A stretch of DNA of 24,000 nucleotides from Hadesarchaea archaeon DG-33 (GTDB lineage Archaea; Hadarchaeota; Hadarchaeia; Hadarchaeales; Hadarchaeaceae), in contig LQHI01000049.1 of NCBI GenBank assembly GCA_001515185.1, positions 3,263 to 27,262 on the forward strand. The letters run 5' to 3'. Below, piece by piece: positions 5,115 to 21,942 of the stretch. The notes under the pieces were generated by a model, which was given only the letters and a program-made list of their open reading frames with translations, did no database searches and was not told the DNA's origin. Position 1 is the stretch's first letter; every line of letters begins with the position of its first letter. Both the position numbers and the translations under genes were made by a program.

Positions 5115-5993
5115 TCACATTAGGAAAGAAAATATCCGTTTAAAGAAAGAGCGCTTGTTTGCCCGCTTCACCACGCGCGCGTCAATCGGTGAATCCACCT
5201 CCGCAGCATAGTGAATGGCGTTGCTTGCGGCCTTCAGGGCTGATCTCGGAACACCTTTGCTGAATTTGTAGAGTGATTTAAAGCCATTTGGGGTCAGTAA
5301 ATCTTTATAACAGATACATCCAGCGTTTTTGAGGCGGAGTTCGAGCAATTCTTTGAGATTTTTTTTGTTCATTGGCTTTAGTTTGATTTTTGTTTGGATG
5401 CGGTCGGCCAGCGCCGGTACCTTGGCGAGAAATCGCTCCATCTGCTTGAACGTGCCGTTGATTAGGATTGAGATGTTTGTTATGTCGGCCAGCACGCGCA
5501 GGAATTCGCCAACCTCTAACGCGTCCGCGCCGCTTTCAGGGAGGTCATCGATGATTATCGCTAGACGTTCTTGGTGTTCTTGGGGCCATCGGCGCAGAAA
5601 CTCGAAGAGATTTTCCCGGTTTTTACTCGCATCCATTTCAAGTCCCAGAATTATCGCACGCAGTAGCTCGTCGGACGATTTGTACGCGGCGCCGTGGATG
5701 AAAACAGGTATAATCTGTTTTGAAGGATCGGACTCAGTTAGATTTTCTTCCTTCAATGATGCTACTAAAAACTCGCACACGGTAGTTTTGCCAGTTCCTA
5801 ACGCGCCTGTGAGGGCACCGATTTTGCCTTTGGACAACAACCATTTGAGTTTGCGCAAATCCCTACGTTGAAATGGGGCAAATGCTTCGATGGAGGTCAG
5901 CTCGAGCTTGAATGGGTCCTCCCGCAGCCCCCAGCTCCAGATGTAACTCTCGAAAAGCCGATCGCGGCCGATCTTTTTTTCGAAAGTGGTCAT
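5115..5993 (-). CDS. AAA_22-type (ExeA / TniB / ORC-like) P-loop ATPase
   Basis: 292 aa. It has an N-terminal GLREDPF motif as in ExeA-type ATPases, Walker A GALGTGKTT, Walker B LAIIIDDLPE and an ORC/ExeA-like lid (KLKPMNKKNLKELLELRL...SKGVPRSALKAASNAI). Its ATG overlaps the upstream HNH gene's stop (ATGA, 5990-5993). Confidence 0.75.
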   Translation of the reverse strand: MTTFEKKIGRDRLFESYIWSWGLREDPFKLELTSIEAFAPFQRRDLRKLKWLLSKGKIGALTGALGTGKTTVCEFLVASLKEENLTESDPSKQIIPVFIHGAAYKSSDELLRAIILGLEMDASKNRENLFEFLRRWPQEHQERLAIIIDDLPESGADALEVGEFLRVLADITNISILINGTFKQMERFLAKVPALADRIQTKIKLKPMNKKNLKELLELRLKNAGCICYKDLLTPNGFKSLYKFSKGVPRSALKAASNAIHYAAEVDSPIDARVVKRANKRSFFKRIFSFLM

Positions 5994-6796
5994 CTCGCTA
6001 GCCTCACGTGTATTTCAAACATCCCGTTTTTGCTCACAAGGTAACCACAAGCGGTCATTCGTTCGCAAAATGTTTTCGCGATAGCTTCGGGGCAATGGAC
6101 ACGGGCAGCTAAATCCCCCAGCGTAAAGCTCTTGAGCACGGCGGCAGCTGAGAGTAGGTCCCCAAACAAGGTGCGTTGGGCTAGTCCAGTTGGCTTGAGA
6201 TCGTCCAAGATCTTGTGGCGAGGTAGTTCGGCCACTTCGGGTACGGGGGGTGGCTGAATTTTTATGGTGGGTTTTTCGGGCTTTGGAGCAGGCGCCTCCG
6301 GCTTTATGCTTGGTTTGAAAGCTGGCATTTTACGCACACGTTTATGCACTAGGTTGTAACACTTCTGGCAAAGCGTGACTAGATTATCCGGGTCATTTCG
6401 ACTTGTTCCATTCTTGTGGTGCACCTCCAGTAGCTCCTTTCCCCCGCATTCTTGGCAGGTGTAGTTATCCCTGATGATTACAGCCTTTCTTACCAGCTCC
6501 CAATCATCCCTATGGTAAGAGAAAACATAGTTCAAAAAGGAGGAGAGGGCTTCATCCTTCGGGATTGTGGAGGGAGGAGGTGGGGCAACGGCAGATGGGA
6601 CCCGAAGTAGACGATTTATCTCGCTTTCAGGTATCCTTCTTTGCCCTCCCTGGGGTCGCACAACCTTGATTTTTCCCTGTTTATCCCACAATCTAATCGT
6701 GTTGGGATGTACTCCGAGTATCTTACAAGCCTCTTTCATTTTGTAGAGTTTTTCTTTTTGTTCCACTACCTCACCTTTTCTAACAATAACCAACAT
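5990..6796 (-). CDS. Multidomain HNH endonuclease: N-terminal excisionase/MerR-type HTH + HNH + Pro-rich linker + C-terminal uncharacterised (wHTH-like) domain
   Basis: 268 aa. The HTH_17-like segment is LYKMKEACKILGVHPNTIRLWDKQGKIKVVRPQGGQRRIPESEINRLL. The HNH is DNYTCQECGGKELLEVHHKNGTSRNDPDNLVTLCQKCYNLVH. The linker is PAFKPSIKPEAPAPKPEKPTIKIQPPPVPE. Confidence 0.8.
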   Translation of the reverse strand: MLVIVRKGEVVEQKEKLYKMKEACKILGVHPNTIRLWDKQGKIKVVRPQGGQRRIPESEINRLLRVPSAVAPPPPSTIPKDEALSSFLNYVFSYHRDDWELVRKAVIIRDNYTCQECGGKELLEVHHKNGTSRNDPDNLVTLCQKCYNLVHKRVRKMPAFKPSIKPEAPAPKPEKPTIKIQPPPVPEVAELPRHKILDDLKPTGLAQRTLFGDLLSAAAVLKSFTLGDLAARVHCPEAIAKTFCERMTACGYLVSKNGMFEIHVRLAR

Positions 6797-6904
6797 CTTC
6801 TAACAATACATACATATAAAGTTAACGGGATTTCTTAACAAAAATAACCTAAACTTTACTAAAAATTTAACAAAGGGCTGGAAATTTTTTGTTAGAATTT
6901 GTAA
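6744..6904. repeat. Direct-repeat copy A (~160 bp). It covers the 5' end and promoter of the HNH gene and the divergent promoter of the 7006 gene
   Basis: Aligns by eye at roughly 80% identity with 7704-7866. It contains internal imperfect inverted repeats acatcttctaac (6793-6804, overlapping the HNH ATG) and gttagaatttgt (6891-6902). Confidence 0.8.
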
Positions 6905-7005
6905 GAATATCAAAACTTGGTCATGAAATGAAGTGGAAGGTGATATTTTCTGCGGTCTTTTCAGCACAAGGAACGCGTTGCTAATCACTTGGGCGATAGG
7001 TCAAA

Positions 7006-7666
7006 ATGGCACGAGGATCCCCATACAAAATTCACAACGGATGGTCCGGTATAATGAACAAATTGTCCGTAGCCGAGATTATCGGAGCTGCCTTGGTGGC
7101 TGATCTTGCAGTTTCTTTCTCAACCGGAACGCTTGTTGGTGGCAATGTTTTGGAATATACGAGTCAAAAATTAGGTGGAGCCAACGTTCTGCCAGATAAT
7201 ATACAGTATCAGCGACCTAGTAAACCAGTTTCTCTACAAGAAGCTAAGGAAAAGGGCCCATACTTCCGAATGCCTTCCTACCTCTCTGAGGGAGTAACAG
7301 TAAAGGAGGTAAGAATACTGGAAGTCTTCGGAGGATACTTGGATGTTATAGTTGATCTATCTTCGGAGAATGAAATCGGTTATCTATACCCGGCCTTGGC
7401 CTACTATGGACGAGAAAAAAGTGCAGGAGTTCATAAGCACGGGATACAATGACGTGACTCCAAAAATAATCAGAATAAATGGAAACGTGGGGTTTGCTAT
7501 CGAGTACGGGAATATTGACTCGGAGACTGGGAGAATTATTCCTGCGACCGTAAGCTGGTTTGATGGGATTATTAGTTACGGCTGGTTTGATGAGACTATT
7601 AATTACCGTATTACAGGAGAACTCCCACTAGAATATCTAATGAAAATGGCTAGGTCAATATACTAA
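7006..7666 (+). pseudogene. Membrane-anchored extracytoplasmic protein of unknown function, apparently split by a +1 frameshift at an A6 run (7415-7420)
   Basis: ORFs 7006..7452 (frame 1) and 7352..7666 (frame 2) overlap. The N-terminal TM is LSVAEIIGAALVADLAVSF. Frame 1 reads sensibly up to ...PALAYYGREK, and frame 2 reads sensibly from (K)VQEFISTGYNDVTPKIIRINGN...ELPLEYLMKMARSIY. Skipping one A in gagaaaaaagtg joins them. Alternatively these are two overlapping genes, with the second starting at ATG 7406. Confidence 0.5.
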
Positions 7667-7703
7667 TTCCTTCCCTACTTCTTCCCCGTAACTCGTTTAC
7701 AAC

Positions 7704-10259: not shown

Positions 10260-10739
10260 ATGCCACTTGAGCTTTCATCTTTCCTGAAGGGTGCAGACCG
10301 CGTGGCGATTGTCGGCGTTGGAAGTGGGATGCGGGGGGACGATGCAGCTGGAATCGAGGTCGTGCGCGGGCTGAGGCATAAGCTCAAGTCGTCAAAGGTA
10401 CTTTTGGTCGAGGGCGGGGTGGCGCCGGAGAACTTCACCTCGCATATCAGACGATTCGAACCCTCCCACGTGATTTTTATCGACGCAACCGATTTCGGTG
10501 CTGAACCTGGCGAAGTGATTTTAGCGGAGCCCGAGGTCATCACCGGCCAGTCCATCTCCACCCACACCCTCCCGCTTTCCATACTCGCGGGTTACCTTCG
10601 AGAACAGACGAGGTCGAAAATAATGCTTCTGGGAATTCAACCGGCACGGGCGCAGATGGGCGCGGAGATGAGTGAGCCGATAAAGGACGCGATTGAGAAA
10701 GTCAATGAAGCTTTGATGAGGGAACTTAGCTCATTTTAG
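10260..10739 (+). CDS. hycI: [NiFe]-hydrogenase maturation endopeptidase (HycI/HybD family)
   Basis: 159 aa. VAIVGVGSGMRGDDAAGIEV and HVIFIDATDFGAEPGEV...STHTLP match the metal-binding Asp/His signature of hydrogenase C-terminal proteases. Confidence 0.85.
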   Translation: MPLELSSFLKGADRVAIVGVGSGMRGDDAAGIEVVRGLRHKLKSSKVLLVEGGVAPENFTSHIRRFEPSHVIFIDATDFGAEPGEVILAEPEVITGQSISTHTLPLSILAGYLREQTRSKIMLLGIQPARAQMGAEMSEPIKDAIEKVNEALMRELSSF

Positions 10740-10765: not shown

Positions 10766-11092
10766 TCATTCGGACTTAGCTTGTTGTATATCATAGGTCG
10801 CGAGTTCAAATTCCCTCGTCATGATGATCGCGCGCGTCGGGCAGGCCTCAGCGCACTCACCGCAGAAGACGCACCGTCCAAGCCATATACTCGGTTTTTT
10901 CGTCTCCTTGTTTACGGTTATCGCTCGGACGGGACAGGTTCTGATGCAAAGCCAGCATCTAATGCACCGCTCCTTATCAATGGATGGGCGCCCACGGTAT
11001 CCCTCGGGGGGCTCGACCCGCACGTAGGGGTACTTCACCGTGGCGGGTCTGCGAAAGAGGTTTCGGAGCACCTGAGGGAGTATTCGGGGCAT
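10766..11092 (-). CDS. mbhN: Mbh subunit N, NuoI-like 2x[4Fe-4S] ferredoxin subunit
   Basis: 108 aa with CIRCWLCIRTCP and CVFCGECAEACP. It is the last gene of the operon, in the same position as P. furiosus mbhN. Confidence 0.85.
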   Translation of the reverse strand: MPRILPQVLRNLFRRPATVKYPYVRVEPPEGYRGRPSIDKERCIRCWLCIRTCPVRAITVNKETKKPSIWLGRCVFCGECAEACPTRAIIMTREFELATYDIQQAKSE

Positions 11093-12046
11093 CTAGGGCA
11101 CCACCAGCACGAGCACTAGGCTGATTATAGCGAGAAGCGCAACGTACGTCCAGAAGAATTTAAGAGCTTGGTCGATGCGCAGACGGGCCATGATGTTCCG
11201 GAGAGTCGTCGTCAGCAGCACGATCGCGAGGGTTTTGATGAGGAAATCGACGACGCCCGGGATTTGAATATTGCCAATCAAATAAGCCGTTGGTCCACCG
11301 AAGAAGAGGGCGGCAAGAAAACCAGCGACCACGATTGTTTCAACGTCATAGGCGAGGCGCCAAATCGCTAGCCTCGGCCCTGAGTACTCGGTCAAAGGTC
11401 CCGCCACGATTTCGGTGTGAGCTTCAGGGATGTCAAAGGGCACGCGCAAGAGCTTTCCCTGAGCGGCTATAAGCGCAGCGATTACCGCGGGCAGGAGGCG
11501 CCAGTCGAGGACGAGCCACCCTTGCTGGGCCTGGTAGCCCACGATCGTCGGCAGGCCGAGGGATCCAACCCTAACTACCGCAGCGATGATCGCAAGGATG
11601 AATATGAACTCATAGCTGAATAGCTGGACGACGTAGCGCCCTGCCCCGGCCGCGCCGAATGGGCTTCCCGATGAGTAACCGCCCAGCATCATGCAGATTG
11701 CCGGGATGTTGAGCAGGTAGATAATGACGATCAAATCCGCAACCAGCGTCAGCGCGGGCTGGGCCGAGTTAATTGGCAAGAGAAGCATCACCGTGACCAC
11801 CGCCCCCAGCGCAACCAGCGGCGCGGCGGTGAATACGGGCGACTGTGCGGCAGCAGGGGTAATATCCTCTTTGCTCAGCAGCTTGCCCACATCAAGGAAC
11901 TCCTGCCATATCGGGGGCCCTATGCGGTGCTGCATGTGTGCAGTTACCTTTCGATCGATTCCAATGTAGAGTAGTCCAATGAGAGAAGCAAAGAGGAGCC
12001 CTGGAAAGACGAGGGAGCCCAAGATAAAATTGACTACCTCCATCAT
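11093..12046 (-). CDS. mbhM: Mbh subunit M, NuoH/HycD-like integral membrane subunit
   Basis: About 317 aa and polytopic. It has HRIGPP and RVPFDIPEAHTEIVAGPLTEYSG (the NuoH signature). The ATG at 12046 forms an ATGA overlap with the mbhL stop and follows an aggaggtgg SD. The track start at GTG 12055 is an alternative. Confidence 0.88.
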   Translation of the reverse strand: MMEVVNFILGSLVFPGLLFASLIGLLYIGIDRKVTAHMQHRIGPPIWQEFLDVGKLLSKEDITPAAAQSPVFTAAPLVALGAVVTVMLLLPINSAQPALTLVADLIVIIYLLNIPAICMMLGGYSSGSPFGAAGAGRYVVQLFSYEFIFILAIIAAVVRVGSLGLPTIVGYQAQQGWLVLDWRLLPAVIAALIAAQGKLLRVPFDIPEAHTEIVAGPLTEYSGPRLAIWRLAYDVETIVVAGFLAALFFGGPTAYLIGNIQIPGVVDFLIKTLAIVLLTTTLRNIMARLRIDQALKFFWTYVALLAIISLVLVLVVP

Positions 12047-13194
12047 CCCTTCCACCTCCTGAGTTCTTTAAAGCTCAGGACACGCGTTTTACCGGTGTGT
12101 GAGTCCACTAGGGCGACGCGATCGGTGCAAGCAAAGCAAGGATCTATGCTTGCCAGAACGATTGGGATCTCTGCAACCGTCCCGCCCACGAACATAGGTT
12201 TGAACGATGGGATGTTGGCGTAAGTTGGAGTTCGAACGCGCACGCGCTCAGGTTTATCTGTGCCATTCGAGATTGCGTAATAGAGTAGTTCTCCTCTTGG
12301 GGCCTCTACGCGCCCAATAGCTTCGTTGGGTTCAATTTTTGGAGTAATTTTCGCCCGCAATGGCCCTTTGGGCAGAGCCTTGACCGCTTGGCGGGTTATG
12401 TGAATAGATTCCAAGATTTCGCGAAGCCTAACGATGACCTTGGCCAAAACGTCTCCATCCGGCTCAGTTATCACGTCGAACGAAATTTGGCCATAGGCAT
12501 CATAAGGATCATCTCTCCTTATATCAATGTCGACACCCGAAGCACGGGTGGTTGGGCCCACAGCGCACAGTTTTTTCGCATCATCTTTTGGCAGCACGCC
12601 GATACCCGCACAACGGGCCAAAATCGTGCGATCTGAAGTGCAAATGTTGATATATTGTTCGGTTGCCTTTTCGAGCTTCTCAAGTGTCCTTAGTATCTTG
12701 GGAACATATTCCGGTTTCACGTCGCGCCTTACCCCACCCAAGGTGTTTGATGCTGAGGTTTGACGATTTCCAGAGATCATCTCTTTCAAGTCAAGCACGA
12801 GCTCACGATCGCGCCAGAATAACATGAACAGAGTATCAAAGCCTATCTCGTGGGCAGCTATCCCAGCCCAAAGCATGTGACTATGGATGCGCTCGAGCTC
12901 GCATAGGATGGTTCGAATGAAACGTGCCCGATCAGGAACTTCGATGCCGGCAAGTTGTTCGATTGTTTGACAGTAGGCCGTCGTGTGAGCAACGTTGCAT
13001 ATACCACAGATTCGCTCGGAGAGGTAGATATTGTGCAGGTAGCTTCGCTCCTGCAGCGCGCGCTCGATGCCGCGGTGCACGTAGCCCAAGCGGACATCGA
13101 AGTCAACGATCTCCTCGCCCTTGACCTCGAACCTGAAGTACTCAGGCTCTTTTAGCGCCGGATGCTGAGGACCTATTGGCACGACAAACGTCAT
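12043..13194 (-). CDS. mbhL: Group 4 [NiFe]-hydrogenase large (catalytic) subunit, NuoD-like
   Basis: 383 aa. The N-terminal Ni-Fe ligand motif is RICGICNVAH and the C-terminal one is DPCFACTDR. These are followed by a 24-residue tail (VALVDSHTGKTRVLSFKELRRWKG). Confidence 0.93.
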   Translation of the reverse strand: MTFVVPIGPQHPALKEPEYFRFEVKGEEIVDFDVRLGYVHRGIERALQERSYLHNIYLSERICGICNVAHTTAYCQTIEQLAGIEVPDRARFIRTILCELERIHSHMLWAGIAAHEIGFDTLFMLFWRDRELVLDLKEMISGNRQTSASNTLGGVRRDVKPEYVPKILRTLEKLEKATEQYINICTSDRTILARCAGIGVLPKDDAKKLCAVGPTTRASGVDIDIRRDDPYDAYGQISFDVITEPDGDVLAKVIVRLREILESIHITRQAVKALPKGPLRAKITPKIEPNEAIGRVEAPRGELLYYAISNGTDKPERVRVRTPTYANIPSFKPMFVGGTVAEIPIVLASIDPCFACTDRVALVDSHTGKTRVLSFKELRRWKG

Positions 13195-13616
13195 TTCTTA
13201 GCCTCCTTGCGTAGCGGGTACACCCCTGCAGGCCAATCATCGGCTAGGAATAGTCTGCGTGGGTCGGGATGCCCTTCTACTTTAACGCCTAGCATTTCCA
13301 TGAGGTCACGTTCGTAAAGGATTGCTCCAGGAAAAATGTCGGTGATAGTTTGCACTTTTGGCGTGCTTTTCGGTAGGTTGAGCTTGAGGCTAAGCAAGGC
13401 CGGTCTACAATCGAGGTGATAAACCACGGTGATCGCATCGCCGCGGTCGACACCCGAAATTGTCGACAGGTGTTGCACATCTCGTTGTTTTAAGGCGAGC
13501 ATGGCGGCCCTGCAGCGCTCCTCATCTGTCGTGGCAAACACACGTCGCACATTCTCGATTTTTATCTCATCGACGTACTCCTTGATGACTTCTGCAACTT
13601 CGTTTGCTTTCATCAT
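13191..13616 (-). CDS. mbhK: Mbh subunit K, NuoC-like
   Basis: 141 aa. LSTISGVD....VVYHL...FPGAILYERDLMEMLGVKVEGHPD is the NuoC/HycE-N signature. It has ATGA overlaps at both ends. Confidence 0.88.
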   Translation of the reverse strand: MMKANEVAEVIKEYVDEIKIENVRRVFATTDEERCRAAMLALKQRDVQHLSTISGVDRGDAITVVYHLDCRPALLSLKLNLPKSTPKVQTITDIFPGAILYERDLMEMLGVKVEGHPDPRRLFLADDWPAGVYPLRKEAKK

Positions 13617-14029
13617 TTCAACCTCGCTAAGGCTTTGACGAGTCCATCGATAATCGCCTCAGGTTTGGGTGGACAGCCCGGCACGTAGGCGATGACGGGT
13701 ATATGCTTGTCGAGGGGCCACACTACGTTGTAGCAGTCGTGGAACACGCTGCCAGATGCAGGGCAGGAGCCAATCGCAACGACAGCCTTTGGCTCGGGCA
13801 TCTGCTCGTAAATTCTGATGAGCCTCGGTAAACACTGCTTCGTGATCGGTCCTGTCACGACCAAGATATCGGCATGTCTTGGCGTGCCCTTTGCCAGCAT
13901 CCCGAAGCGCTCGATATCGTAGCGCGGCGTAAGCGCAGCAACGACCTCGATACTGCAACCGTTGCAGCTGCCAGTGTCGAAGTGCAGTAGCCAAGGGGAT
14001 TTTTTCCTAAATAATCGAATTAGTCCCAT
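13613..14029 (-). CDS. mbhJ: Mbh subunit J, NuoB-like hydrogenase small subunit ([4Fe-4S])
   Basis: GSCNGCSIE...GSCPASG...VPGCPP are the NuoB cluster ligands. I place the start at ATG 14029 (MGLIRLFRKKSPW), preceded by a ggtgag SD and 4 nt after the mbhI stop. The track ORF starts at 14062. Confidence 0.88.
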   Translation of the reverse strand: MGLIRLFRKKSPWLLHFDTGSCNGCSIEVVAALTPRYDIERFGMLAKGTPRHADILVVTGPITKQCLPRLIRIYEQMPEPKAVVAIGSCPASGSVFHDCYNVVWPLDKHIPVIAYVPGCPPKPEAIIDGLVKALARLK

Positions 14030-14033
14030 GAGC

Positions 14034-14369
14034 TCACCACAACACCACCGCGATTGCTGCAAGGATGATGATTAGGCCGACCACCACCCAGAAGAGGTAG
14101 GTGCTCAAGATGCCTGTGTGCCCAGGGCGCACATAGCGGTAAAATGGTCCGAAGACGCGGCGGATGGGCGAGAAGAACAGCTCGCTGTCCGCATGGACCT
14201 CTTCAGCCTCAAGCAACTCACCACAGGCATAGGTCTGGACCTTTTGATCGCTGGGTTTTGCCTTAGTGATTCTTCGTCCACCGATTAGAATGAGCCATGT
14301 TACCGCGACGATGAGCAGAAGCGCGGCGGTTGCAATTATGGGACCCCAGAACCCAGGCCCGAATTCCAT
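14034..14369 (-). CDS. mbhI: Mbh subunit I, small two-TM membrane subunit
   Basis: 111 aa with hydrophobic helices at both ends (IIATAALLLIVAVTWLILIGG; LFWVVVGLIIILAAIAVVLW). Size and position match P. furiosus MbhI. Confidence 0.7.
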   Translation of the reverse strand: MEFGPGFWGPIIATAALLLIVAVTWLILIGGRRITKAKPSDQKVQTYACGELLEAEEVHADSELFFSPIRRVFGPFYRYVRPGHTGILSTYLFWVVVGLIIILAAIAVVLW

Positions 14370-14464
14370 TAGCTACCCCCCAGCTTGTTCATGTTCGACC
14401 TCATGCTTTACCACTCCTTTTGACTTAGATTTTTCATGATTATTTTTAAATTTTGATTTATCAC

Positions 14465-15565
14465 CTAACTTTCACTTTTCTCTTTCATCCAATGCGGTAT
14501 TGGCTTCCCATATTTGCCCCAGCGCTTCAACAATTTTTTAGCTGAATTTTTCTTTCTTCTTGAGAGCCGTTTAACGAGTCCAATACCGGGCTTAACTGAG
14601 TTGAGCGATTTTACACCGAGCTTTGGATTATTTCTGGCTACTTTAAAAGCCTCCGCTCCGACCTTGGTGCGCACTAATACCGTGGAGCGACCCAGGGGAG
14701 ATCCTACAGCACCGACGGATATGTCTGCTAGCTCACAGGCGAAATCCAAACAAACCGAACAGGACGTATTAACGCAATTCTTTAGGGCTTTTACATCAAC
14801 TTCCCGCTTCGACCCTTGTTTGGAATAAACGACAAAATTCCCCTTTTTGATGTCAAATTTAGAGACGTTCTCTATAGGGATTTTTAGTTTCCTCTTCACG
14901 AAATTTTTGAGCTTTTCATAATAGAATGATTCCATGCAGAACAACCCGATTACCAACTTCACGGAATCCGCTAGATGATGAAAAGCTCTATCACCGAACT
15001 GCATCCTTCGTACGGCATTGATCTGACAGGGAGTACCCACGATTGCTACTCTCTTCTTCAAGTACAGATCTACGGCGTCCCTCAGCCCTAAGAGGATTGG
15101 ACTTGGAGTATATTTTGTCCCTGCACACTGGGTTATCTCGTCTGGGGTCAGCGCCACTTTCGGCTTCGGCTTCCAAGATTCACCTTCAAATCCCGTCACC
15201 ACTGCCCCATCTATAAAATCCTTTTTTAAGAGCCAAGTAAGCATCGAAGTCACAGCGCCCCCATCTTGGCATTTCTTCCGAATTTTTGGGTCCTTCGTTT
15301 TTACGGAGAAGGCTTTTCCATATACCCCGATGTCTGGGTCGGGAGATGCCTGGCCAGATACATACTCCACAAGCTTAGCAGAGTCACCTGTTTGGGGACA
15401 TTCGTAATAACAGAGGTTACAGTCTTCGCATTTTCCAACGAGCTTAGGTTCGCAGCTAGCGAGATTCAAAGCATTAAATTGGCATGACGCGATACATGCC
15501 CCGCAGCCAGTGCAAAGTCCTGGCTTTATCACTTCTTTATAAAGATGCCCGAAGATTTTATTCAT
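14465..15565 (-). CDS. FrhB/FpoF-family flavo-iron-sulfur protein: N-terminal 2x[4Fe-4S] ferredoxin domain + FrhB_N/FrhB_C + basic C-terminal tail
   Basis: CTGCGACIASC and CEDCNLCYYECP, then QDGGAVTSMLTWLLKKDFIDGAVV, GTKYTPSP, VAIVGTPCQINAVRR, IGLFCMESF, CSVCLDFACELADISVGAVGSPLGRSTVLVRT. The tail is KRLSRRKKNSAKKLLKRWGKYGKPIPHWMKEK. The ATG at 15565 follows a ggtgaggag SD; the track begins at TTG 15577. Confidence 0.85.
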   Translation of the reverse strand: MNKIFGHLYKEVIKPGLCTGCGACIASCQFNALNLASCEPKLVGKCEDCNLCYYECPQTGDSAKLVEYVSGQASPDPDIGVYGKAFSVKTKDPKIRKKCQDGGAVTSMLTWLLKKDFIDGAVVTGFEGESWKPKPKVALTPDEITQCAGTKYTPSPILLGLRDAVDLYLKKRVAIVGTPCQINAVRRMQFGDRAFHHLADSVKLVIGLFCMESFYYEKLKNFVKRKLKIPIENVSKFDIKKGNFVVYSKQGSKREVDVKALKNCVNTSCSVCLDFACELADISVGAVGSPLGRSTVLVRTKVGAEAFKVARNNPKLGVKSLNSVKPGIGLVKRLSRRKKNSAKKLLKRWGKYGKPIPHWMKEKSES

Positions 15566-15611
15566 CTCCTCACCCAATCTTCGTGATTCAAAAGTGTGAG
15601 TTCAAATTCCA

Positions 15612-17108
15612 TTAGACACCACCCAACACCGCGCTTATGTAACCACCAGAGTTCATCACGGCTTCCTGCGCGGGGCGCACCAATTCTATCCCTAGATGTG
15701 GAAGCACGCCGAATACCAAGCAGAGCGCCGCAAGCAGCAAGATTGGAATGAGCATCGAGATGGGGGTTTCCTTTACATTTTTTAAGTGCTTTGGCCGCTG
15801 GCCTAAGAAGATCGAGTTGAATGCTTTCAAGAAGTAAGCGAGCGTCAGAGCGCTTACAACGAGGGCGATGATGGTAAACACATATTGCCCCTCTTCGATG
15901 CCTGCCACGTAGATCGTCCACTTACTTGCAAAGCCGTTCATAGGCGGCACCCCCGAGATTGCAAGCGCACCTATCATGAAGGCCATCGCGGTCACGGGCA
16001 TGTTGTTCCAGAGCCCCCCAAGCTTGTCCATGTTAGAGGTTCCCACCTGGTAGATGATCGTCCCAGCAATCATGAAGAGCATCGTCTTGTAGATGGCGTT
16101 GTTGAATAGGTGGAAGAGCCCACCTTGGATCCCCAGCGTCGTGCCCAAACCTATGCCGAGCAGGATGTAGCCGAGCTGGCAGATACCCGAGTATGCGAGC
16201 AAACGCTTCAAGTCTCGTTGGACAAGAGCCATGAAAGCGCCAAGCACCATCGAGACGAGTCCGAGGCCCGCGAGTATCATCCCCACTCCAAGAATCCCGA
16301 AAAGCATGTAGACCACTCGCACCATCGCGTAAATCCCAACGGTAGTCGTGGCCCCCGAGAAAAGAGCTGCGACGGCCGATGGGGCTGCTTGGTATGCATC
16401 TGGCTGCCACATGTGTAGGGGAACCATCGCGATCTTAATGCCGAAGCCAGTCATGAAGAGGCCTAGCGGCACAATCAGGGTTGATGGGACTACCCCTCCA
16501 AACTTTTGCATCAGGTCACCTATGTTGAGGCTACCCACTTGCCCGAAGAGCAACGCCACGCTAAGCAGGATGAAAGAGGTGCCTAGGGAGCTGACGATCA
16601 TGTACTTGATGCTTGCCTCGATCGATTGCCAATTTCGCCTGAACGCCACGAGGGCATAGGAGGAGATGCACATGATTTCGAAGAACACGTAGAGGTTGAA
16701 GATGTCTCCCGTGAGCGTGACGCCCATCATACCAGCCAGGATGAGCAAGAAAAGGGTGTAATACTGGTCTAGTCCTGTGTCGCGCTCCATGTAAACAAAG
16801 GAGTAAATCGCGACGAGTGCGCTGATGCCAACAACGATGAGCGCGACCAGCAGGTTCAGCCCGTCGATGGCGAGGTTGATTCCCCAAGGAGGTTGCCACC
16901 CCCCTAGCTGGTAGACGAGCACTTGGCCGCCCACCACCGCTGGCAACATGCTCGCCACGATTACGAGCTCCGCAAGCACCGCAGCGATCGCAAACCACTC
17001 CCGAGCGCGCTTGATGCCTCGCCGACGGGCTAAAATTCCAACCACTGGCATCAGGAACGCCGCGAACAGCGGGAGCAATATGGCTAAAATTGGAGCGTGA
17101 GGGATCAC
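15612..17108 (-). CDS. mbhH: Mbh subunit H, MrpD/NuoN-like antiporter subunit
   Basis: 498 aa with about 14 TM helices, typical of the NuoL/M/N-MrpA/D family (PLHMWQPDAYQAAP, LAYSGICQLGYILLG). The GTG start forms a GTGA overlap with the mbhG stop. Confidence 0.9.
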   Translation of the reverse strand: MIPHAPILAILLPLFAAFLMPVVGILARRRGIKRAREWFAIAAVLAELVIVASMLPAVVGGQVLVYQLGGWQPPWGINLAIDGLNLLVALIVVGISALVAIYSFVYMERDTGLDQYYTLFLLILAGMMGVTLTGDIFNLYVFFEIMCISSYALVAFRRNWQSIEASIKYMIVSSLGTSFILLSVALLFGQVGSLNIGDLMQKFGGVVPSTLIVPLGLFMTGFGIKIAMVPLHMWQPDAYQAAPSAVAALFSGATTTVGIYAMVRVVYMLFGILGVGMILAGLGLVSMVLGAFMALVQRDLKRLLAYSGICQLGYILLGIGLGTTLGIQGGLFHLFNNAIYKTMLFMIAGTIIYQVGTSNMDKLGGLWNNMPVTAMAFMIGALAISGVPPMNGFASKWTIYVAGIEEGQYVFTIIALVVSALTLAYFLKAFNSIFLGQRPKHLKNVKETPISMLIPILLLAALCLVFGVLPHLGIELVRPAQEAVMNSGGYISAVLGGV

Positions 17109-17464
17109 TCCTTCAACCTCCTGATTTTCGATGGGTCAAGCGTGCCGTAGTGGCGGTAGGCGTAGATGGCTAGCGAGAGAGCCAGCGCGAGGATGCAGAT
17201 GTTGATGACGATTGAGGTCAGCACGAGTGCTTGAGGGACAGGGTCGACGGCGTGGGCGGCAAATCCAGGGAGGTCCGAGAACATCTCCCCGCTAACGATT
17301 GGAGCCGTGCCTCCTAAGCGATATCCAATACTTATCAGGAAGAGGTGGATACCATCGGTCAACACGGCGAGGCCGATGATTATTTTGATCAAGTTGCGCT
17401 TGAGTAGCAGGCAGTATATCCCGAGAGCGACTAGGAGCATCGCAAAGATGTAGTTTAGGTCCAA
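17105..17464 (-). CDS. mbhG: Mbh subunit G, MrpC/NuoK-like
   Basis: 119 aa with 3 TM helices and DPVPQALVLTSIVI, typical of MnhC. The TTG start is preceded by a gggggtg SD. Confidence 0.82.
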   Translation of the reverse strand: MDLNYIFAMLLVALGIYCLLLKRNLIKIIIGLAVLTDGIHLFLISIGYRLGGTAPIVSGEMFSDLPGFAAHAVDPVPQALVLTSIVINICILALALSLAIYAYRHYGTLDPSKIRRLKE

Positions 17465-17495
17465 CTTTACACCCCCGTAAACTCCAAGCTGTTAC

Positions 17496-17930
17496 TCATT
17501 CTTTCTCCTCCCTGAAAGCGAACAACATCGCGTAGAAAATCAGGATGATGCCCGCCGTGACTTTTATCCCGACGCCTAGGTAGAGCAGGGGCAGGTTGCC
17601 AGCACTAAATAGCTGCCCGAGATCTCCGAGCGGGAACACGTTTTGGAGGAAGAAGGCACCGAGTAGGAGGCCAAACAACCCTAGGACTACTATCGCTACC
17701 CCCCCGATGCTTTCAAGCACCTCGGCTTGCAGGAGGCCCATCCTTTTCTGTGCCCGTTCAATGCCATAGGCTAGGAGTAGCATCACCACCGAGGCGGCGA
17801 TTATCACTCCTCCCGGGAAGCCCCCTCCGGGAGTCAGGTGGCCGTGAAGCACGATGTAGGCCCCGAAGAGGAAGGTGAACGGGAAGAGGAGCCTCGCGAT
17901 TGTTCGAACGATTACCGTCATTCCCGCCAT
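17496..17930 (-). CDS. mbhF: Mbh subunit F, MrpB-like
   Basis: I place the start at ATG 17930 ([41 protein letters not shown], the MnhB signature), overlapping the mbhE stop (TAATG). The track ORF's 34-codon extension lies inside mbhE. Confidence 0.82.
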   Translation of the reverse strand: MAGMTVIVRTIARLLFPFTFLFGAYIVLHGHLTPGGGFPGGVIIAASVVMLLLAYGIERAQKRMGLLQAEVLESIGGVAIVVLGLFGLLLGAFFLQNVFPLGDLGQLFSAGNLPLLYLGVGIKVTAGIILIFYAMLFAFREEKE

Positions 17931-18229
17931 TACTCTCGCCTCCCAAATGCCCTGAAAATCATCACTACACCCACGACGGCTGTGAAGAGCACCGTCGCCT
18001 CCCCCAACGTGTCGTAGCCTCGGTAGCCCCACACGACGCTCGTCACCACGTTTGCCGCACCCGTCTGCTGAGGGGCGTTCTCTAAAATCTGCTGGCCGAT
18101 GCTATTGTCGAAGTTTTCCCCGATCTGGCGACTGGGGAAGGAGCCGAACGGCAGTAGGTTAGTGCTGACGGTGAAAACGAGCAGCACGCCGATCGCCACG
18201 ACCATCCCGAGCGCGAGTGCCCGTTGCAT
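17930..18229 (-). CDS. mbhE: Mbh subunit E (MnhB N-terminal-domain-like)
   Basis: 99 aa. [23 protein letters not shown] is the conserved MbhE/MnhB motif. Confidence 0.8.
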
Positions 18230-18481
18230 CTATTCTTTCCTCCTTGTGCGACTTATCGCTATCACGAAGAGCACGGTCGTCACCCCCGCCCCTACAGCCG
18301 CTTGGGTGATTGCAATGTCCGGGGCCTGAAGCATAAAGAAGACAACCGCAAGTGTGATGCTTGCTCCGGCCAGCACGATTACCGAGTAGAGCAGGTCTTT
18401 GAGTTCGATCGCGATTAGGCAGAGCACGAACAGGAACACGAGCATGGCGTTTTGAATCAGTAAATCGAGACTCAACTTCAC
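18230..18481 (-). CDS. mbhD: Mbh subunit D (DUF4040-type small membrane subunit)
   Basis: 83 aa with 3 TM helices and APDIAITQAAVGAGVTTVLFV, typical of MbhD. GTG start at 18481. Confidence 0.8.
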   Translation of the reverse strand: MKLSLDLLIQNAMLVFLFVLCLIAIELKDLLYSVIVLAGASITLAVVFFMLQAPDIAITQAAVGAGVTTVLFVIAISRTRRKE

Positions 18482-18508
18482 ACCCCTGTAAACTTCACAC
18501 CCCTGTAA
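18475..18508. repeat. Perfect 17-bp tandem duplication (acttcacacccctgtaa x2, plus a partial third, acttc) covering the SD and start codon of mbhD
   Basis: Unit 1 is 18475-18491, unit 2 is 18492-18508, and 5 further matching nt run to 18513. A 19/21-identical 21-mer occurs upstream of mbhG (17463-17483). Confidence 0.9.
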
Positions 18509-18515
18509 ACTTCGC

Positions 18516-18842
18516 TCATGGTTTTTCCTCCTCGAGCTTGTCGACCACGCTGCGACGCCAGAGCTTGACGCCGGACTTATGGGCGGCTCGAGCGATTGCG
18601 TGGGCGCTTACGGGGTTAGTAAGGAAGATGAAGAAGGCGATGATGAGTATTTTTAAGGTGTAGGAGCTCAGCCCCTCAAGCACACTCGCGCCGAGCAGCA
18701 TCACGATTGCCCCACCGACCACGACCACGGTGTTGGCGTGGATTCGGTTGTAAACATCCGGGAAGCGCACGATGCCAATTGACCCAACGATAGCACAGAA
18801 AGCACCGATGCCCAGCAGGATATAAGCGATTATTTCAATCAA
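18516..18842 (-). CDS. mbhC: Mbh subunit C, MrpG-like
   Basis: I place the start at TTG 18842 ((M)IEIIAYILLGIGAFCAIVGSIGIVRFPDVYNRIHA, the MnhG signature), overlapping the mbhB stop. The track ORF (to 19061) is over-extended through mbhB. Confidence 0.8.
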   Translation of the reverse strand: MIEIIAYILLGIGAFCAIVGSIGIVRFPDVYNRIHANTVVVVGGAIVMLLGASVLEGLSSYTLKILIIAFFIFLTNPVSAHAIARAAHKSGVKLWRRSVVDKLEEEKP

Positions 18843-19096
18843 GTTTCGATCCCCCTTCCTTCGAGATATTTTGCGATAGCGAGCGTGCCCAAGAAAGCGA
18901 GGAAAGCGTAGACCAAGGCTACATCGAGGTAGATGGGGGCACGATAATAGACGCCCAGCAGCACAAGGGCACTTATCATCAGCACTACCAAGGCATCGAT
19001 GGCGACGACCCGATCGGGGGCCGTGGGACCCAGCGCGGCTCGGAGCGCGCAGATGAGGCATGCACAGAAGATGATGATGAGCACCTCGAGAATCAT
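18839..19096 (-). CDS. mbhB: Mbh subunit B, MrpF-like
   Basis: The start at ATG 19096 (MILEVLIIIFCACLICALRAALGPTAPDRVVAIDAL, the MnhF signature) forms an ATGA overlap with the mbhA stop. Confidence 0.8.
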   Translation of the reverse strand: MILEVLIIIFCACLICALRAALGPTAPDRVVAIDALVVLMISALVLLGVYYRAPIYLDVALVYAFLAFLGTLAIAKYLEGRGIET

Positions 19097-19596
19097 CTGA
19101 ATATCCTCCTGAGGAAACGCTCGAAGGGCCAAGCTATTTGCCTGCTGGTTTGCTCGGGTTCTACCGCTTCGACATTGATCCAGTGCACGTATAGGGAGGG
19201 TTCCTCTTCATTGACCTCTACGCTGAGCGTGCCTGGGGTCATCGTGATCGCGTTGGCCAAGCCGGTGATGCCAAAGTCGCTCCGGAGTTTGGTCGGTACT
19301 CGCACGATGCCGGGTTTAATGGGCATTCTTGGGTGTAAGATGCGATAGATGACGCTTGCATGCGCCTTCAGCTCGGCCCAGATGTATGCGGGCACATAGG
19401 CGAGGGCGTAGCCCCATCGCTTCGGTTCAAATTTCTCCCGCATCCCACCGTGAAAGAGGAGCTTGTAGGAAATCACGGCCACGAAGGCAGCGACGATTGC
19501 CCCCACTCCGAGCTCCTGGGGATTGAGTGAACCCGTTAGGGCAATCCATGCTAGCCACAGGCAGATGAACGCAACGAACAAACTTCCTTTAGCCAT
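19093..19596 (-). CDS. mbhA: Mbh subunit A, MrpE-like
   Basis: ANAITMTPGTLSVEV...LYVHWI is the MnhE signature. ATG 19596 (MAKGSLFVAF...) is preferred over the track's TTG at 19632. An AT-rich promoter region lies upstream (19633-19790). Confidence 0.8.
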   Translation of the reverse strand: MAKGSLFVAFICLWLAWIALTGSLNPQELGVGAIVAAFVAVISYKLLFHGGMREKFEPKRWGYALAYVPAYIWAELKAHASVIYRILHPRMPIKPGIVRVPTKLRSDFGITGLANAITMTPGTLSVEVNEEEPSLYVHWINVEAVEPEQTSRQIAWPFERFLRRIFR

Positions 19597-19962
19597 TGGT
19601 ATCGCTTCGTTGCCCCATAACACTGGGCCCAATAATTTTTTTCATTTTCATAGTATTCCGTTTTAATAGTTGTTCCAACTCTTTTACTTTTTACATCTAT
19701 ATATCCTTTATTTTCTGTGTTTTCATTAATTAAATAAAATTTGATGGGTTGGAATGAGTTTAGTGCTTTATCCAAAATTTCACTCTTTTAAATAACCTCC
19801 ACCCAAAGCCTCGGCGGGCAAATTGAACACTTTGCTGCTCGTGCACACGCTTGTCGTGATTTGGTTAAATTGGCTTGACCTTATTCGAGCGCTCTCGTTG
19901 CACACGTCAGGCAACCCGTTGGCGTTTCCCAGCGGATTTACAAATCGTGGCATGGGGAGCTT

Positions 19963-21942
19963 ATGAGGGGGTTTGCTTCGCTCGCGCTCATGCTAGCGGT
20001 GCTGCTCTTGGCGATAGTTCCGGTCAGGGCCAGTCCGGACGTTTTTACCGACGATAGCTTCAGCTCGCCCGGGGGGCTGGATGGTGTCGAGGTTGTTGCT
20101 GGTGATGTAAGATTAAAGATTACTCCCGAAAACTGGACACAGACCACAAAAGCTGATTTTGAACAGTGGGAGAATTACGAGAACATAACAGCTGTTGATT
20201 TGGATTATGTAAAACTTGAGAGCACTGGCGAAGGATGGTCAACCTTAGAAAATGCACCCTACAGCAGTACATATTGTGTAGCTACGGCTGGTGCTGGAGA
20301 CTACATTTTCATCCTCAGGGGCTACTGGTCCGGCGTCAAGGTTGGGGTAGGGCGATACAACACCGCAACCGGGAGCGGGGAGAATTGGAGCGACCCAACG
20401 ATCGAATGGCAGGAGAAGAAGCACTACTTTAAAAATGGTTGCTCGATGGCTTGGGACAATGGCGACTACATTTATGTGTTTGCGGGGGGCAGCTACGATG
20501 ATACATCTAACCCATCCAATCCCACCAAGCACGAGCCCCGTTACGGTTTCTGGCGCTTTTCGGTCGGCAATCCATCCAGCTGGGAGCGTCTCGAGAACAC
20601 ACCATGGCACCAAGGCCCGGGGGACTCTTTAGTTTGGGCAAGGGCGGACGGGGAGAACTACATCTATGCATGGATTGGCACCACGAGCAAAAATCGCGGG
20701 CGCGGTTGTGGGGCAAAATTTTATCGCTACAGCGTTCACAGCGGGCACTGGGACGCAAAGCCGATAACCGAGATAGAGAAGCTGTATTGTAATAACGAGG
20801 TTTTGCCGCCCTACGGTGCCGACGATGGCTCGAGCTTGGCGTGGACCGGAGGGGATTACATCTATTTCCTCCCGGGCGCCTATGCCGAGAACCTACCTCC
20901 AAACAAGGAGCGCTATTTCGCACGTTTTGTAATTTTGGAGAATAGGTGGGAAAATCTGGCGATGTTGCCCTACAACGAGAACCCAGACACAGCGGAGAGC
21001 GATGGTGTCGATGATGGTGGCTCGATGGTCTGGAATGGTGGCGATTATTTCTACGTTTTGAAGGGCGGAGATGGCAACGGAGATGATGAGGCGGACAATT
21101 TCTGGCGTTACAGCATCAGCTCGGACTCGTGGGAAGTGCTGGCGGGGGTTCCGCTTGGGCCGTCGAGGAACAACGGCACGAGGCTAGGTTACGCGGGCGA
21201 GAACGTGTATTACTGGCACGCCAACTCGACTGGATTCTGGGCATACACGCCGCCGAAGTATAGGAGAAGTGGCTATTTTACCTCTAGTGTTTTCGATGCC
21301 GGCGTGATCTCCACTTGGCAGCGAATGAGTTTTGAGTTCGGTGCAAGTAGCGGGGCGGCGCTGCGGGTTTGGACACGGTCGAGTTCAGACAACGTAAAGT
21401 GGTCGGATTGGGTGGAGAATCAAAGCGGGGACTTACTGCCGTGGGAGAACCGCTACCTCCGGTACCGCGTGGAGCTCTCAACCACCGACGAAGATGTAAC
21501 ACCCATACTGCACGAGATGCGCATCGCCTACGTCACGAAAATTTGGAGAACTGGCACCTTCACGAGCCAGCCCCTCGAGCTCGGTCACGTTGAGAATTGG
21601 GGCACGCTGAGCTGGGAGGCGACGCTACCGGAGAACACCTCGATATCGTTCGCCACCCGAAGCTCGGCAGATGGCTCGACTTGGTCGGAGTGGGCCGAAC
21701 TTGACTCGAACGAGATTCAAAGTCCGACTCGCGACCGGTCGTTTCTGCAGGTTCGGGCGACTCTGAGGAGCTTGGGCGCGGCCACCCCAACCTTGCGGAG
21801 CTACAGTATTTCCTATACCCCAGATCGAGCGCCGCCGGTTCAGCCGATTGAGCACGTGGCGTTGGTCGTAGCGGTTGGCGCGGCGGGCATTGTGGCGGTT
21901 GGCGTGGATCGGGCGCTCTCTAAGAGGGCTCGCCACGCCTAA
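19963..21942 (+). CDS. Secreted, C-terminally membrane-anchored surface protein: Kelch-like six-blade beta-propeller + two ~90-aa tandem beta-sandwich-like repeats
   Basis: 659 aa. The signal peptide is MRGFASLALMLAVLLLAIVPVRASP. Six blade-like repeats are centred on GDYIFILRG, GDYIYVFAGG, ENYIYAWIG, GDYIYFLPG, GDYFYVLKGG and ENVYYWH. The C-terminal repeats are SGYFTSSVFD...MRIAY and TGTFTSQPLE...YSISY. The TM is VALVVAVGAAGIVAVGV, followed by a basic tail. Confidence 0.8.
   Translation: MRGFASLALMLAVLLLAIVPVRASPDVFTDDSFSSPGGLDGVEVVAGDVRLKITPENWTQTTKADFEQWENYENITAVDLDYVKLESTGEGWSTLENAPYSSTYCVATAGAGDYIFILRGYWSGVKVGVGRYNTATGSGENWSDPTIEWQEKKHYFKNGCSMAWDNGDYIYVFAGGSYDDTSNPSNPTKHEPRYGFWRFSVGNPSSWERLENTPWHQGPGDSLVWARADGENYIYAWIGTTSKNRGRGCGAKFYRYSVHSGHWDAKPITEIEKLYCNNEVLPPYGADDGSSLAWTGGDYIYFLPGAYAENLPPNKERYFARFVILENRWENLAMLPYNENPDTAESDGVDDGGSMVWNGGDYFYVLKGGDGNGDDEADNFWRYSISSDSWEVLAGVPLGPSRNNGTRLGYAGENVYYWHANSTGFWAYTPPKYRRSGYFTSSVFDAGVISTWQRMSFEFGASSGAALRVWTRSSSDNVKWSDWVENQSGDLLPWENRYLRYRVELSTTDEDVTPILHEMRIAYVTKIWRTGTFTSQPLELGHVENWGTLSWEATLPENTSISFATRSSADGSTWSEWAELDSNEIQSPTRDRSFLQVRATLRSLGAATPTLRSYSISYTPDRAPPVQPIEHVALVVAVGAAGIVAVGVDRALSKRARHA

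Follow-up and report, generated by a model that had tools for sequence, protein, structure and literature searches.

Organization of the mbh operon and its additional gene

This work concerns an frhB-like gene (hereafter frhB) inserted in the membrane-bound hydrogenase (Mbh) operon of Hadesarchaea archaeon DG-33, a subsurface member of Candidatus Hadarchaeota. The operon was analyzed in a 24,000-nucleotide (nt) stretch of contig LQHI01000049.1 (GCA_001515185.1, positions 3,263 to 27,262), which is called the window here and to whose first letter all coordinates refer. Based on open reading frames (ORFs) and Pfam searches of all of them, 14 mbh genes and one extra gene were located on the minus strand from ~19632 to 10766, following the mbhA-N order of Pyrococcus furiosus, with frhB as the extra 15th gene between mbhH and mbhI. 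An earlier reading of this DNA from its letters alone (the sequence-only reading) had claimed exactly this order with a single exception, and the Pfam results on every subunit agreed with it. The frhB gene encodes 366 amino acids (aa) at 14465-15565 (minus strand), with its ATG at 15565 and a TAG stop at 14467-14465; a longer ORF with a TTG start at 15577 is an alternative, and a GGTGAGGAG ribosome-binding site (Shine-Dalgarno) lies directly upstream of the gene.

All mbh genes lie on the same strand as frhB. On one side, mbhA to mbhH make up an Mrp-like ion-translocating membrane module (15612-19632) that has the same order in the related locus L001: mbhA (19093-19596 or, with a longer start, 19632; Pfam MNHE), mbhB (18839-19132; MrpF_PhaF), mbhC (18516-18860; PhaG_MnhG), mbhD (18230-18481; MbhD), mbhE (17930-18229; MbhE), mbhF (17496-17930; MnhB), mbhG (17105-17464; Oxidored_q2), and mbhH (15612-17108; Proton_antipo_M). 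On the other side, the hydrogenase module (10766-14369) begins with mbhI (14034-14369), whose product is a 111-aa membrane protein with a weak match to the NCBIfam MbhI model (39 bits, cut-off 95) and no match in a search against the Protein Data Bank (PDB). It continues with mbhJ (13613-14062; Oxidored_q6), mbhK (13191-13616; Complex1_30kDa), mbhL for the [NiFe] large subunit (12043-13194; Complex1_49kDa/NiFeSe_Hases), mbhM (11093-12055; NADHdh), and mbhN (10766-11092; Fer4), the product of which carries 2x[4Fe-4S] and is the presumed docking partner of the frhB product. A divergent gene for a HycI-type hydrogenase maturation protease (10260-10739, plus strand; Pfam HycI, E = 6.4e-21) adjoins mbhN, and hypC, hypA, and hypE are expected further upstream of it, judging from synteny with the L001 gene table.

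Both [NiFe] cysteine pairs of MbhL are intact (RICGIC and DPCFACTDR). Its best matches among solved proteins were Escherichia coli HycE (7z0s_E, E = 2.8e-90) and P. furiosus MbhL (6cfw_L, E = 6.4e-81), both far ahead of Mbs (6u8y_L, E = 7.5e-51) or complex I, so that by its sequence the hydrogenase of the window operon looks genuine. The Pfam assignments and the intact MbhL motifs thus bear out the view that a protein of FrhB/FpoF architecture is embedded in a genuine Mrp-Mbh operon.

Domain architecture and predicted structure of the frhB product

A PF04422/PF04432 search recovered both FrhB domains in the 366-aa protein (FrhB_FdhB_N, E = 7.6e-24, 84.1 bits, cut-off 22; FrhB_FdhB_C, E = 8e-44, 149.6 bits, cut-off 23.3), and Fer4 was matched at E = 4.9e-07, confirming the claim that a ferredoxin domain is joined to full FrhB_N and FrhB_C regions in the gene between mbhH and mbhI. 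Residues ~1-78 form a 2x[4Fe-4S] ferredoxin domain with CxxCxxCxxxC motifs at 18-28 and 46-56, residues 79 to ~325 form the FrhB flavin/[4Fe-4S] domain, and residues 328-351 form a basic C-terminal helix. The eight cysteines of the two ferredoxin motifs and C180, C210, C269, and C272 of the FrhB domain were invariant among 22 homologues, and the latter four align with cysteines of FrhB and of 8riu_B (described below). The protein passed the NCBIfam model of the FrhB subfamily (PRK09325, 295 bits, cut-off 269), while the FpoF model aligned with it across residues 11-342. In Methanothermobacter marburgensis FrhB, coenzyme F420 is coordinated by residues 163, 165-167, and 208-211 (PMC8115248), and six of these eight positions are identical in the frhB product (I239, K241, G242, G285, V287, and G288).

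An AlphaFold2 monomer model of the protein (predicted local distance difference test score, 80; predicted template modeling score, 0.84) was best matched in Foldseek by 8riu_B, with a template modeling (TM) score of 0.84 and a root mean square deviation of 2.4 Å over 341 columns. The same chain was the best full-length sequence match (E = 5.5e-61, residues 10-341, 37% identity). FrhB, 8rja_E, and Fsr followed; the top 12 structural matches were all F420 enzymes (TM 0.70-0.84), and HCAR (5dqr), which does not use F420, reached only ~0.60. The FrhB domain was 38-41% identical to 9r51_B and 3zfs_C and 36-37% identical to Methanosarcina barkeri 6qgr_B, these values spanning the entire FrhB chains with the basic C-terminal helix included.

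Of the matched structures, 8RIU_B and 8RJA_E are the zeta subunit of carbon monoxide dehydrogenase (CODH) and FwdI of formylmethanofuran dehydrogenase (Fwd) from Candidatus Ethanoperedens thermophilum (PMC11493965). In CODH zeta, a ferredoxin domain (residues 1-83) anchors the module, an F420-reductase domain (84-349) follows, and a C-terminal extension completes the chain, whereas FwdI is an F420-reductase module that takes the place of the polyferredoxin FwdF; F420 reduction was measured for these modules (PMC11493965). They directly exemplify how an enzyme of the ferredoxin type can be rewired to F420 by a plug-in module. The basic tail of the frhB product had been proposed as a docking helix for Mbh. 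This proposal did not hold, since relatives encoded on their own have kept the tail as well, and its counterpart in solved Frh structures is the C terminus of canonical FrhB; an Mbh-specific docking role was therefore rejected in favor of a family-wide FrhB feature. In the CODH zeta structure, anchoring falls to the ferredoxin domain at the N terminus, and the extension at the C terminus takes part in a homodimer contact (PMC11493965).

Insertion scar and gene junctions

The longest direct repeat around frhB is 21 nt long (18/21 identical), has its copies 1243 nt apart, and flanks the insertion exactly. Its left copy (15605-15625, minus strand) is the 3' end of mbhH, where the codons for ..LGGV are followed by a TAA stop overlapping ATG GAA TT (TAATGGAATT). 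Its right copy (14362-14382, minus strand) contains the last codons of an 11-codon mini-ORF (..LGGS), whose TAA stop overlaps ATG GAA TTC, the actual start of mbhI. An exact 11-nt core of the repeat, CTAATGGAATT on the coding strand, occurs at only these two sites within the window. What was duplicated is the former mbhH-stop/mbhI-start junction, and a single insertion event with junction duplication is visible at the frhB locus.

Two mini-ORFs bridge the new junctions. The first, of 16 codons (MEFELTLLNHEDWVRR and a stop; 15562-15612, minus strand), overlaps the mbhH stop with its ATG (TAATG) and the frhB ATG with its own stop (ATGA), and is in frame with frhB in L007, L088, and L008; it resembles a remnant of the former mbhI start, MbhI itself beginning with MEF. 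The second, of 11 codons (MRSNMNKLGGS and a stop; 14369-14404, minus strand), has a stop that overlaps the mbhI ATG. Stop/start overlaps are thereby kept across both new junctions, which fits continued coupled translation through the operon.

The gap upstream of frhB measures 46 nt to the ATG and 34 nt to the TTG, and the downstream gap of 95 nt is the largest in the operon. The sequence-only reading had taken gaps of 34 and 95 nt as the only sizeable ones near the module boundary; both were found (the former when counted to the TTG), and gaps of ~31-34 nt also occur at mbhG/F and mbhC/D. The 95-nt spacer between frhB and mbhI (14370-14464, minus strand) contains the A/T-rich TATA-like stretch that had been noted there but no run of five or more T and no T-run terminator. 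Of the 33-nt stretch that holds the element, only L088 has a counterpart; the element is absent in L008, and the L003 spacer is 29 nt long. A TATA-like element is therefore present but not conserved, being missing in L008 and L003, and a conserved internal promoter in the gap was not supported.

Conservation, gain and loss, and selection

To place the insertion among relatives, one genome per GTDB species was scanned, and Mbh operons were collected by a metagenome scan seeded with MbhL. The closest relatives of the frhB product were found in Candidatus Hadarchaeota, with 91% identity in L007 and 82% in L008, the latter on a 1.03-Mb contig. The mbhH-frhB-mbhI layout was present in L001/L008, L003 (68%), L007, L087, L088, and L090, showing that it is conserved across one clade. 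The frhB ORF is intact in eight independent contigs at 68-98% identity, with all cofactor ligands kept.

Close Mbh operons without frhB were also recovered, namely, L089 (MbhL 87% identical) and L091, L092, and L098 (68-69%). The mbhH stop overlaps the mbhI start in L089, L091, and L092, and the L098 sequence begins inside mbhI. A neighbor-joining tree of concatenated MbhA-H grouped L091 with L092 and, apart from them, placed L003 outside a group in which L089 was joined to L008, the window, and L088/L090; the backbone nodes nesting L089 among the frhB-containing operons received 100% bootstrap support. Judging from these sequences, the simplest history is one gain of frhB followed by one precise loss in L089. 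Since the L089 operon is intact without frhB, the module is accessory, and the earlier claim that it converts Mbh into another enzyme was accordingly not upheld. Moreover, frhB is 68% identical to its L003 counterpart and the Mbh subunits are 62-82% identical, as for co-divergence after a single gain.

The ratio of nonsynonymous to synonymous substitution rates (dN/dS) of frhB was 0.27 versus L008 and L088 and 0.18 versus L003, while that of its mbh neighbors was mostly 0.06-0.16 (range, 0.015-0.20). The frhB gene is under purifying selection.

As had been noticed from the letters, frhB is AT-richer than its neighbors. Its G+C fraction is 0.455, and its G+C fraction at third codon positions (GC3), 0.477, is the lowest among the correctly framed genes of the window, compared with 0.65-0.78 in the genes of mbh membrane subunits and 0.55 in mbhK and mbhL. 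The offset is equally strong in L007 (GC3 0.45) and L008 (0.49), which are 91% and 82% identical, and is weaker in L003 (68% identical), where 0.53 falls within the 0.52-0.71 of the neighboring genes. Because it is kept in diverged relatives, the offset is a standing property of the gene rather than a mark of recent transfer.

The window and L087, which come from the same population, share 99.5% nucleotide identity over 7.9 kb, and 19 of their 40 differences fall in frhB. Fourteen of these 19 lie within 122 nt (window 15277-15398), which encode residues ~56-96, a linker modeled with low confidence that joins the ferredoxin domain to the FrhB domain. This cluster of single-nucleotide polymorphisms (SNPs) might mark a tract of recombination or a hot spot of local extent.

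Origin of frhB and hydrogenase linkage in other lineages

The origin of the gene was addressed with a bootstrapped neighbor-joining phylogeny of 88 sequences restricted to the FrhB domain. The Mbh-inserted frhB genes formed one clade (100% bootstrap), whose sister (83%) was the FrhB of L010/L011, also from Hadarchaeota; both nested among stand-alone FrhB-like genes of Hadarchaeota (88%), with methanogen FrhB outside. The idea of a module horizontally acquired from elsewhere is not borne out by this nesting. A distant horizontal origin was rejected on the basis of the tree together with the GC3 offset kept in relatives. Instead, the phylogeny points to the recruitment of a resident paralogue with no foreign donor.

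In L010 (9000-17800) and L011 (2800-8300), and also in L004/L005, the FrhB gene lies in a NuoH-FrhB-NuoB-NuoC-NuoD-NuoI cluster, which continues with an FdhB-like gene, FlpD, and an FdhA-like gene and adjoins the genes for CODH/acetyl-coenzyme A synthase. Its NuoD-type subunit lacks the [NiFe] cysteines and there is only one membrane subunit, which makes it a nonhydrogenase complex-I-like cluster; it may encode a membrane-anchored complex linked to F420 and formate. With its sister clade in such a cluster, the lineage that entered Mbh was probably already tied to complex-I-type peripheral arms.

Outside this clade, a linkage survey of 80 species-level loci revealed that FrhB-like genes of separate clades adjoin true [NiFe] group-4 clusters in several lineages. 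In Nezhaarchaeales L064 (7540-11011), mbhJ-K-L-N-frhB form an operon, with a 6-nt gap, that is divergent from the operon of membrane subunits, so that frhB is co-operonic specifically with subunits of the soluble arm. In Bathyarchaeia, the order mbhJKLMN-frhB was found in L052 (6522-11095), and L078 also has the genes adjacent. The gene likewise adjoins true [NiFe] group-4 clusters in Hecatellales L039 and L060, and at five Nitrososphaeria loci (e.g., L045:9911-15568) it is convergent on the mbh genes.

Supply of coenzyme F420

The availability of F420 was assessed in a sibling genome whose frhB is 82% identical and lies in the same operon layout. On its 1.03-Mb contig (CAZETV010000001.1), which also carries the L008 operon, a CofD homologue (P0206) was detected, and CofE, CofC, and a luciferase-family gene (Bac_luciferase, Mer-like) lie beside CofD. 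The genes cofC, cofD, and cofE are thus present in a genome with the same operon, as expected if F420 is made there. Stand-alone members of the family occur in related contexts: L006 lies amid cofC/D/E/G/H genes and a Mer-like gene, and L002 lies beside mch, ftr, fwd, and the F420-dependent mtd. A CRISPR-Cas gene set for adaptation and interference (Cas3-like, Cas4, Cas1, and Cas2) was observed a few kilobases from CofD/CofE/CofC in the sibling genome (L099:1-5800).

Proposed function and alternative explanations

We consider it somewhat better than an even bet that the frhB product is an accessory peripheral subunit of Mrp-Mbh that adds an F420 site to the complex; its physical docking on Mbh, its use of F420, and the coupling to ion translocation are what we infer. 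The N-terminal ferredoxin domain would dock at the usual site of free ferredoxin (MbhN), comparable to zeta on CODH and FpoF on Fpo. Electrons would pass, in either direction, between F420/F420H2, flavin adenine dinucleotide, the [4Fe-4S] of the FrhB domain, and the two [4Fe-4S] of the ferredoxin domain, and from there via the two [4Fe-4S] of MbhN and the [4Fe-4S] of MbhJ to the [NiFe] site of MbhL. Wired in this way, the complex would convert F420H2 to H2 or the reverse, coupled at that site to the Mrp-like ion module, and would probably still react with ferredoxin. The standard potentials (E0') are about -340 to -360 mV for F420, -414 mV for H+/H2, and about -450 to -500 mV for ferredoxin. 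The potentials of F420 and H+/H2 imply that F420H2 can drive H2 formation only where H2 is very low or an ion gradient assists, and that F420 reduction by H2 is mildly exergonic and could conserve a little energy.

A further-reaching reading, to which we give a little less than an even chance, is that the complex is an Mbh/Fpo intermediate still in existence, a membrane-bound hydrogenase that truly combines F420 linkage with ion translocation, and that this solution has arisen repeatedly (in Hadarchaeota, Nezhaarchaeales, Bathyarchaeia, and Nitrososphaeria). If so, the ion gradient might drive H2 formation from F420H2, providing a hydrogen outlet for syntrophic archaea that produce F420H2, such as alkane- or C1-oxidizing Hadarchaeota; alternatively, energy might be conserved from the H2-dependent reduction of F420, which is wasted by soluble Frh.

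Several results weigh against a role as an F420-input subunit of Mbh. The L089 operon lost frhB and was kept, indicating that Mbh does not need it, and by dN/dS the constraint on frhB is about twice as relaxed as that on core Mbh subunits. Comparison of MbhJ, MbhK, MbhN, and MbhI between operons with and without frhB revealed no diagnostic indels, the only difference being a 3-aa shorter MbhK C terminus. The protein failed the NCBIfam frhB equivalog (TIGR03289, 264 bits, cut-off 331.5) and both FpoF models (NF040616, 178 bits versus 475; PRK09326, 175 versus 444), and two of the eight F420-contact positions are substituted (K167 to N243 and S209 to A286), although the proven F420 reductase 8riu_B likewise differs at two of them. 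The step from F420H2 to H2 yields little free energy for ion pumping. In addition, stand-alone relatives share the architecture, so the fold alone does not imply docking on Mbh.

These points lend themselves to other explanations. The protein might be a soluble ferredoxin:F420 oxidoreductase like free Methanosarcina FpoF, co-transcribed with mbh to balance the ferredoxin, F420, and H2 pools without being an Mbh subunit. Relatives of identical architecture do stand alone beside genes of F420 biosynthesis or of the tetrahydromethanopterin-dependent C1 pathway, orphan FrhB/FpoF have been given such a role in the literature (PMC11176372 and PMC10667645), and the dispensability of frhB in L089 and its weaker constraint relative to Mbh subunits would follow. 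We nevertheless regard this as rather unlikely, because an interior site between two membrane-subunit genes, held since the split from L003, would be unusual for a co-regulated soluble enzyme, and stop/start coupling was kept across both frhB junctions. Moreover, the sister clade and several unrelated lineages place frhB inside or directly after genes of the peripheral arm, and the solved homologues of the same architecture are docked subunits.

The module might instead sit on Mbh or cooperate with it without having F420 as its acceptor; that part could be played by a different flavin or deazaflavin, by NAD(P), or by a small redox protein. A non-F420 member of the family, HCAR (5dqr), is among the fold matches, and FrhAGB of Thermococcus onnurineus, from the F420-free Thermococcales, was reported to reduce rubredoxin (PMC13333549); the scores below the FrhB and FpoF equivalog cut-offs and the two substituted contact positions point the same way. 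This explanation seems improbable in view of the 12 top structural matches (TM 0.70-0.84), all F420 enzymes, against ~0.60 for HCAR, the equal divergence of 8riu_B at the contact positions, the CofC, CofD, and CofE encoded in the sibling genome, and the occurrence of family members in F420-biosynthesis and Mtd/Mer contexts. Lastly, frhB might be a passenger insertion tolerated in the operon and without a role in hydrogen metabolism, for which the lowest GC3 in the window, the highest dN/dS in the operon, the loss without damage in L089, and the clustering in frhB of SNPs versus L087 could be cited. However, an ORF intact in eight contigs at 68-98% identity, with cofactor ligands kept and dN/dS well below 1, makes this highly improbable, and the SNP cluster lies in the low-confidence interdomain linker, outside the catalytic core.

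Other features of the window

The tandem-repeat scan revealed nothing bearing on frhB but identified a perfect 17-nt tandem duplication at mbhC/mbhD (18474-18513, 2.4 copies, TACAGGGGTGTGAAGTT on the coding strand). It creates the 34-nt mbhC-mbhD gap, in place of which the mbhC stop overlaps the mbhD GTG in L008, and it is a second junction duplication within the mbh operon of the window. The synonymous substitution rate (dS) of mbhK is ~1.0 versus L008 and L088, compared with 0.15-0.4 in the adjoining genes. MbhK is only 61% identical to that of L089, with MbhL at 87%, and dS is also raised in mbhC and mbhE, a pattern that suggests mosaic recombination inside the operon.

Further away, a MerR-HTH/HNH protein (5990-6796) and an AAA_22 ATPase (5115-5993) are encoded within 5115-7700 as a pair that is kept beside the hyp genes in L001. 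After this pair, the GC fraction is low (0.39-0.43) in a stretch containing a 27-nt tandem repeat (7554-7606) and an ORF of 148 aa (7006-7452) for which Pfam gave no match. Beyond the other end of the operon, a 659-aa protein with weak Kelch-repeat matches (19963-21942) is divergent from mbhA and occupies the same position in L001. Scanning the window against Rfam and for tRNA genes returned nothing.

Significance and comparison with known systems

The linkage of FrhB to a group-4 hydrogenase is not in itself novel. In 2025, frhB was described adjacent to group 4g hydrogenases in the Syntropharchaeia family YL-1, and coupling of H2 to F420 instead of ferredoxin was inferred (PMC12533140). That case concerns another phylum and hydrogenase subtype and adjacency rather than insertion in a 14-gene Mrp-Mbh operon, and it is purely genomic. 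Orphan FrhB has been widely proposed as an F420 reductase (PMC11176372 and PMC10667645), and modular add-ons to group-4 hydrogenases, such as formate- or CO-linked Mbh-type enzymes and Ehd/Ehe/Ehg/Drh, are an established theme (PMC9723716). Given these precedents, the general idea has been voiced before. New here are the insertion inside the 14-gene Mrp-Mbh operon, its scar, and its gain-and-loss history, together with the sister tie to a complex-I-like cluster and the breadth of independent occurrences. Our literature search found no description of frhB inside a hadarchaeotal mbh operon. To our knowledge, no F420-coupled group-4 hydrogenase has been characterized biochemically.

If the subunit docks on Mbh, the F420 pool would be linked directly to H2 at an ion-coupled site. 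Papers on cultured Hadarchaeota discuss FrhB/Frh as a possible route from F420H2 to H2, mention no linkage to Mbh, and explicitly leave open how these archaea reoxidize F420H2 or reduce F420 (PMC10811742 and PMC11297162). The proposed subunit, if real, would help to explain these reactions in Wood-Ljungdahl or alkane-oxidizing archaea, Hadarchaeota and others, that have only orphan FrhB. It would also represent a concrete intermediate on the route that has been proposed to lead from ferredoxin-dependent Mbh to enzymes of the complex-I type that depend on F420 or NADH. The natural sister operons with and without frhB (the window and L089) allow a clean comparison.

Among known systems, the 14-subunit ferredoxin-dependent Mrp-Mbh of P. 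furiosus (6CFW) shares the gene order, the [NiFe] motifs, and the adjacent maturation genes with the window operon, but classical Mbh has no flavoprotein subunit, whereas the window operon has its 15th gene between mbhH and mbhI. FrhB of the soluble group 3a hydrogenase FrhAGB has a catalytic domain 38-41% identical across the whole of FrhB; in the window, however, neither frhA nor frhG is nearby, the neighbors are group-4 mbh genes, and the protein has a ferredoxin domain of its own at the N terminus, similar to the C-terminal domain of FrhG. FpoF of Methanosarcina Fpo and FqoF of Archaeoglobus Fqo have the same domain architecture and the same proposed role of F420 input on a complex-I-like complex, although at 178 bits against a cut-off of 475 the frhB product is not an FpoF orthologue. 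Fpo and Fqo have a NuoD-type subunit without the [NiFe] site and reduce methanophenazine or quinone, whereas the [NiFe] ligands of the window operon are intact and its other substrate would be H+/H2; the sister cluster in L010/L011 resembles Fpo more closely. The nearest parallel in architecture is offered by CODH zeta (8RIU chain B) and FwdI (8RJA chain E) of Candidatus Ethanoperedens, which have the same three parts and the same plug-in logic, a classically ferredoxin-dependent enzyme being rewired to F420 (PMC11493965). Their partners are the soluble CODH and Fwd, while the putative partner here would be a membrane-bound ion-translocating [NiFe] hydrogenase.

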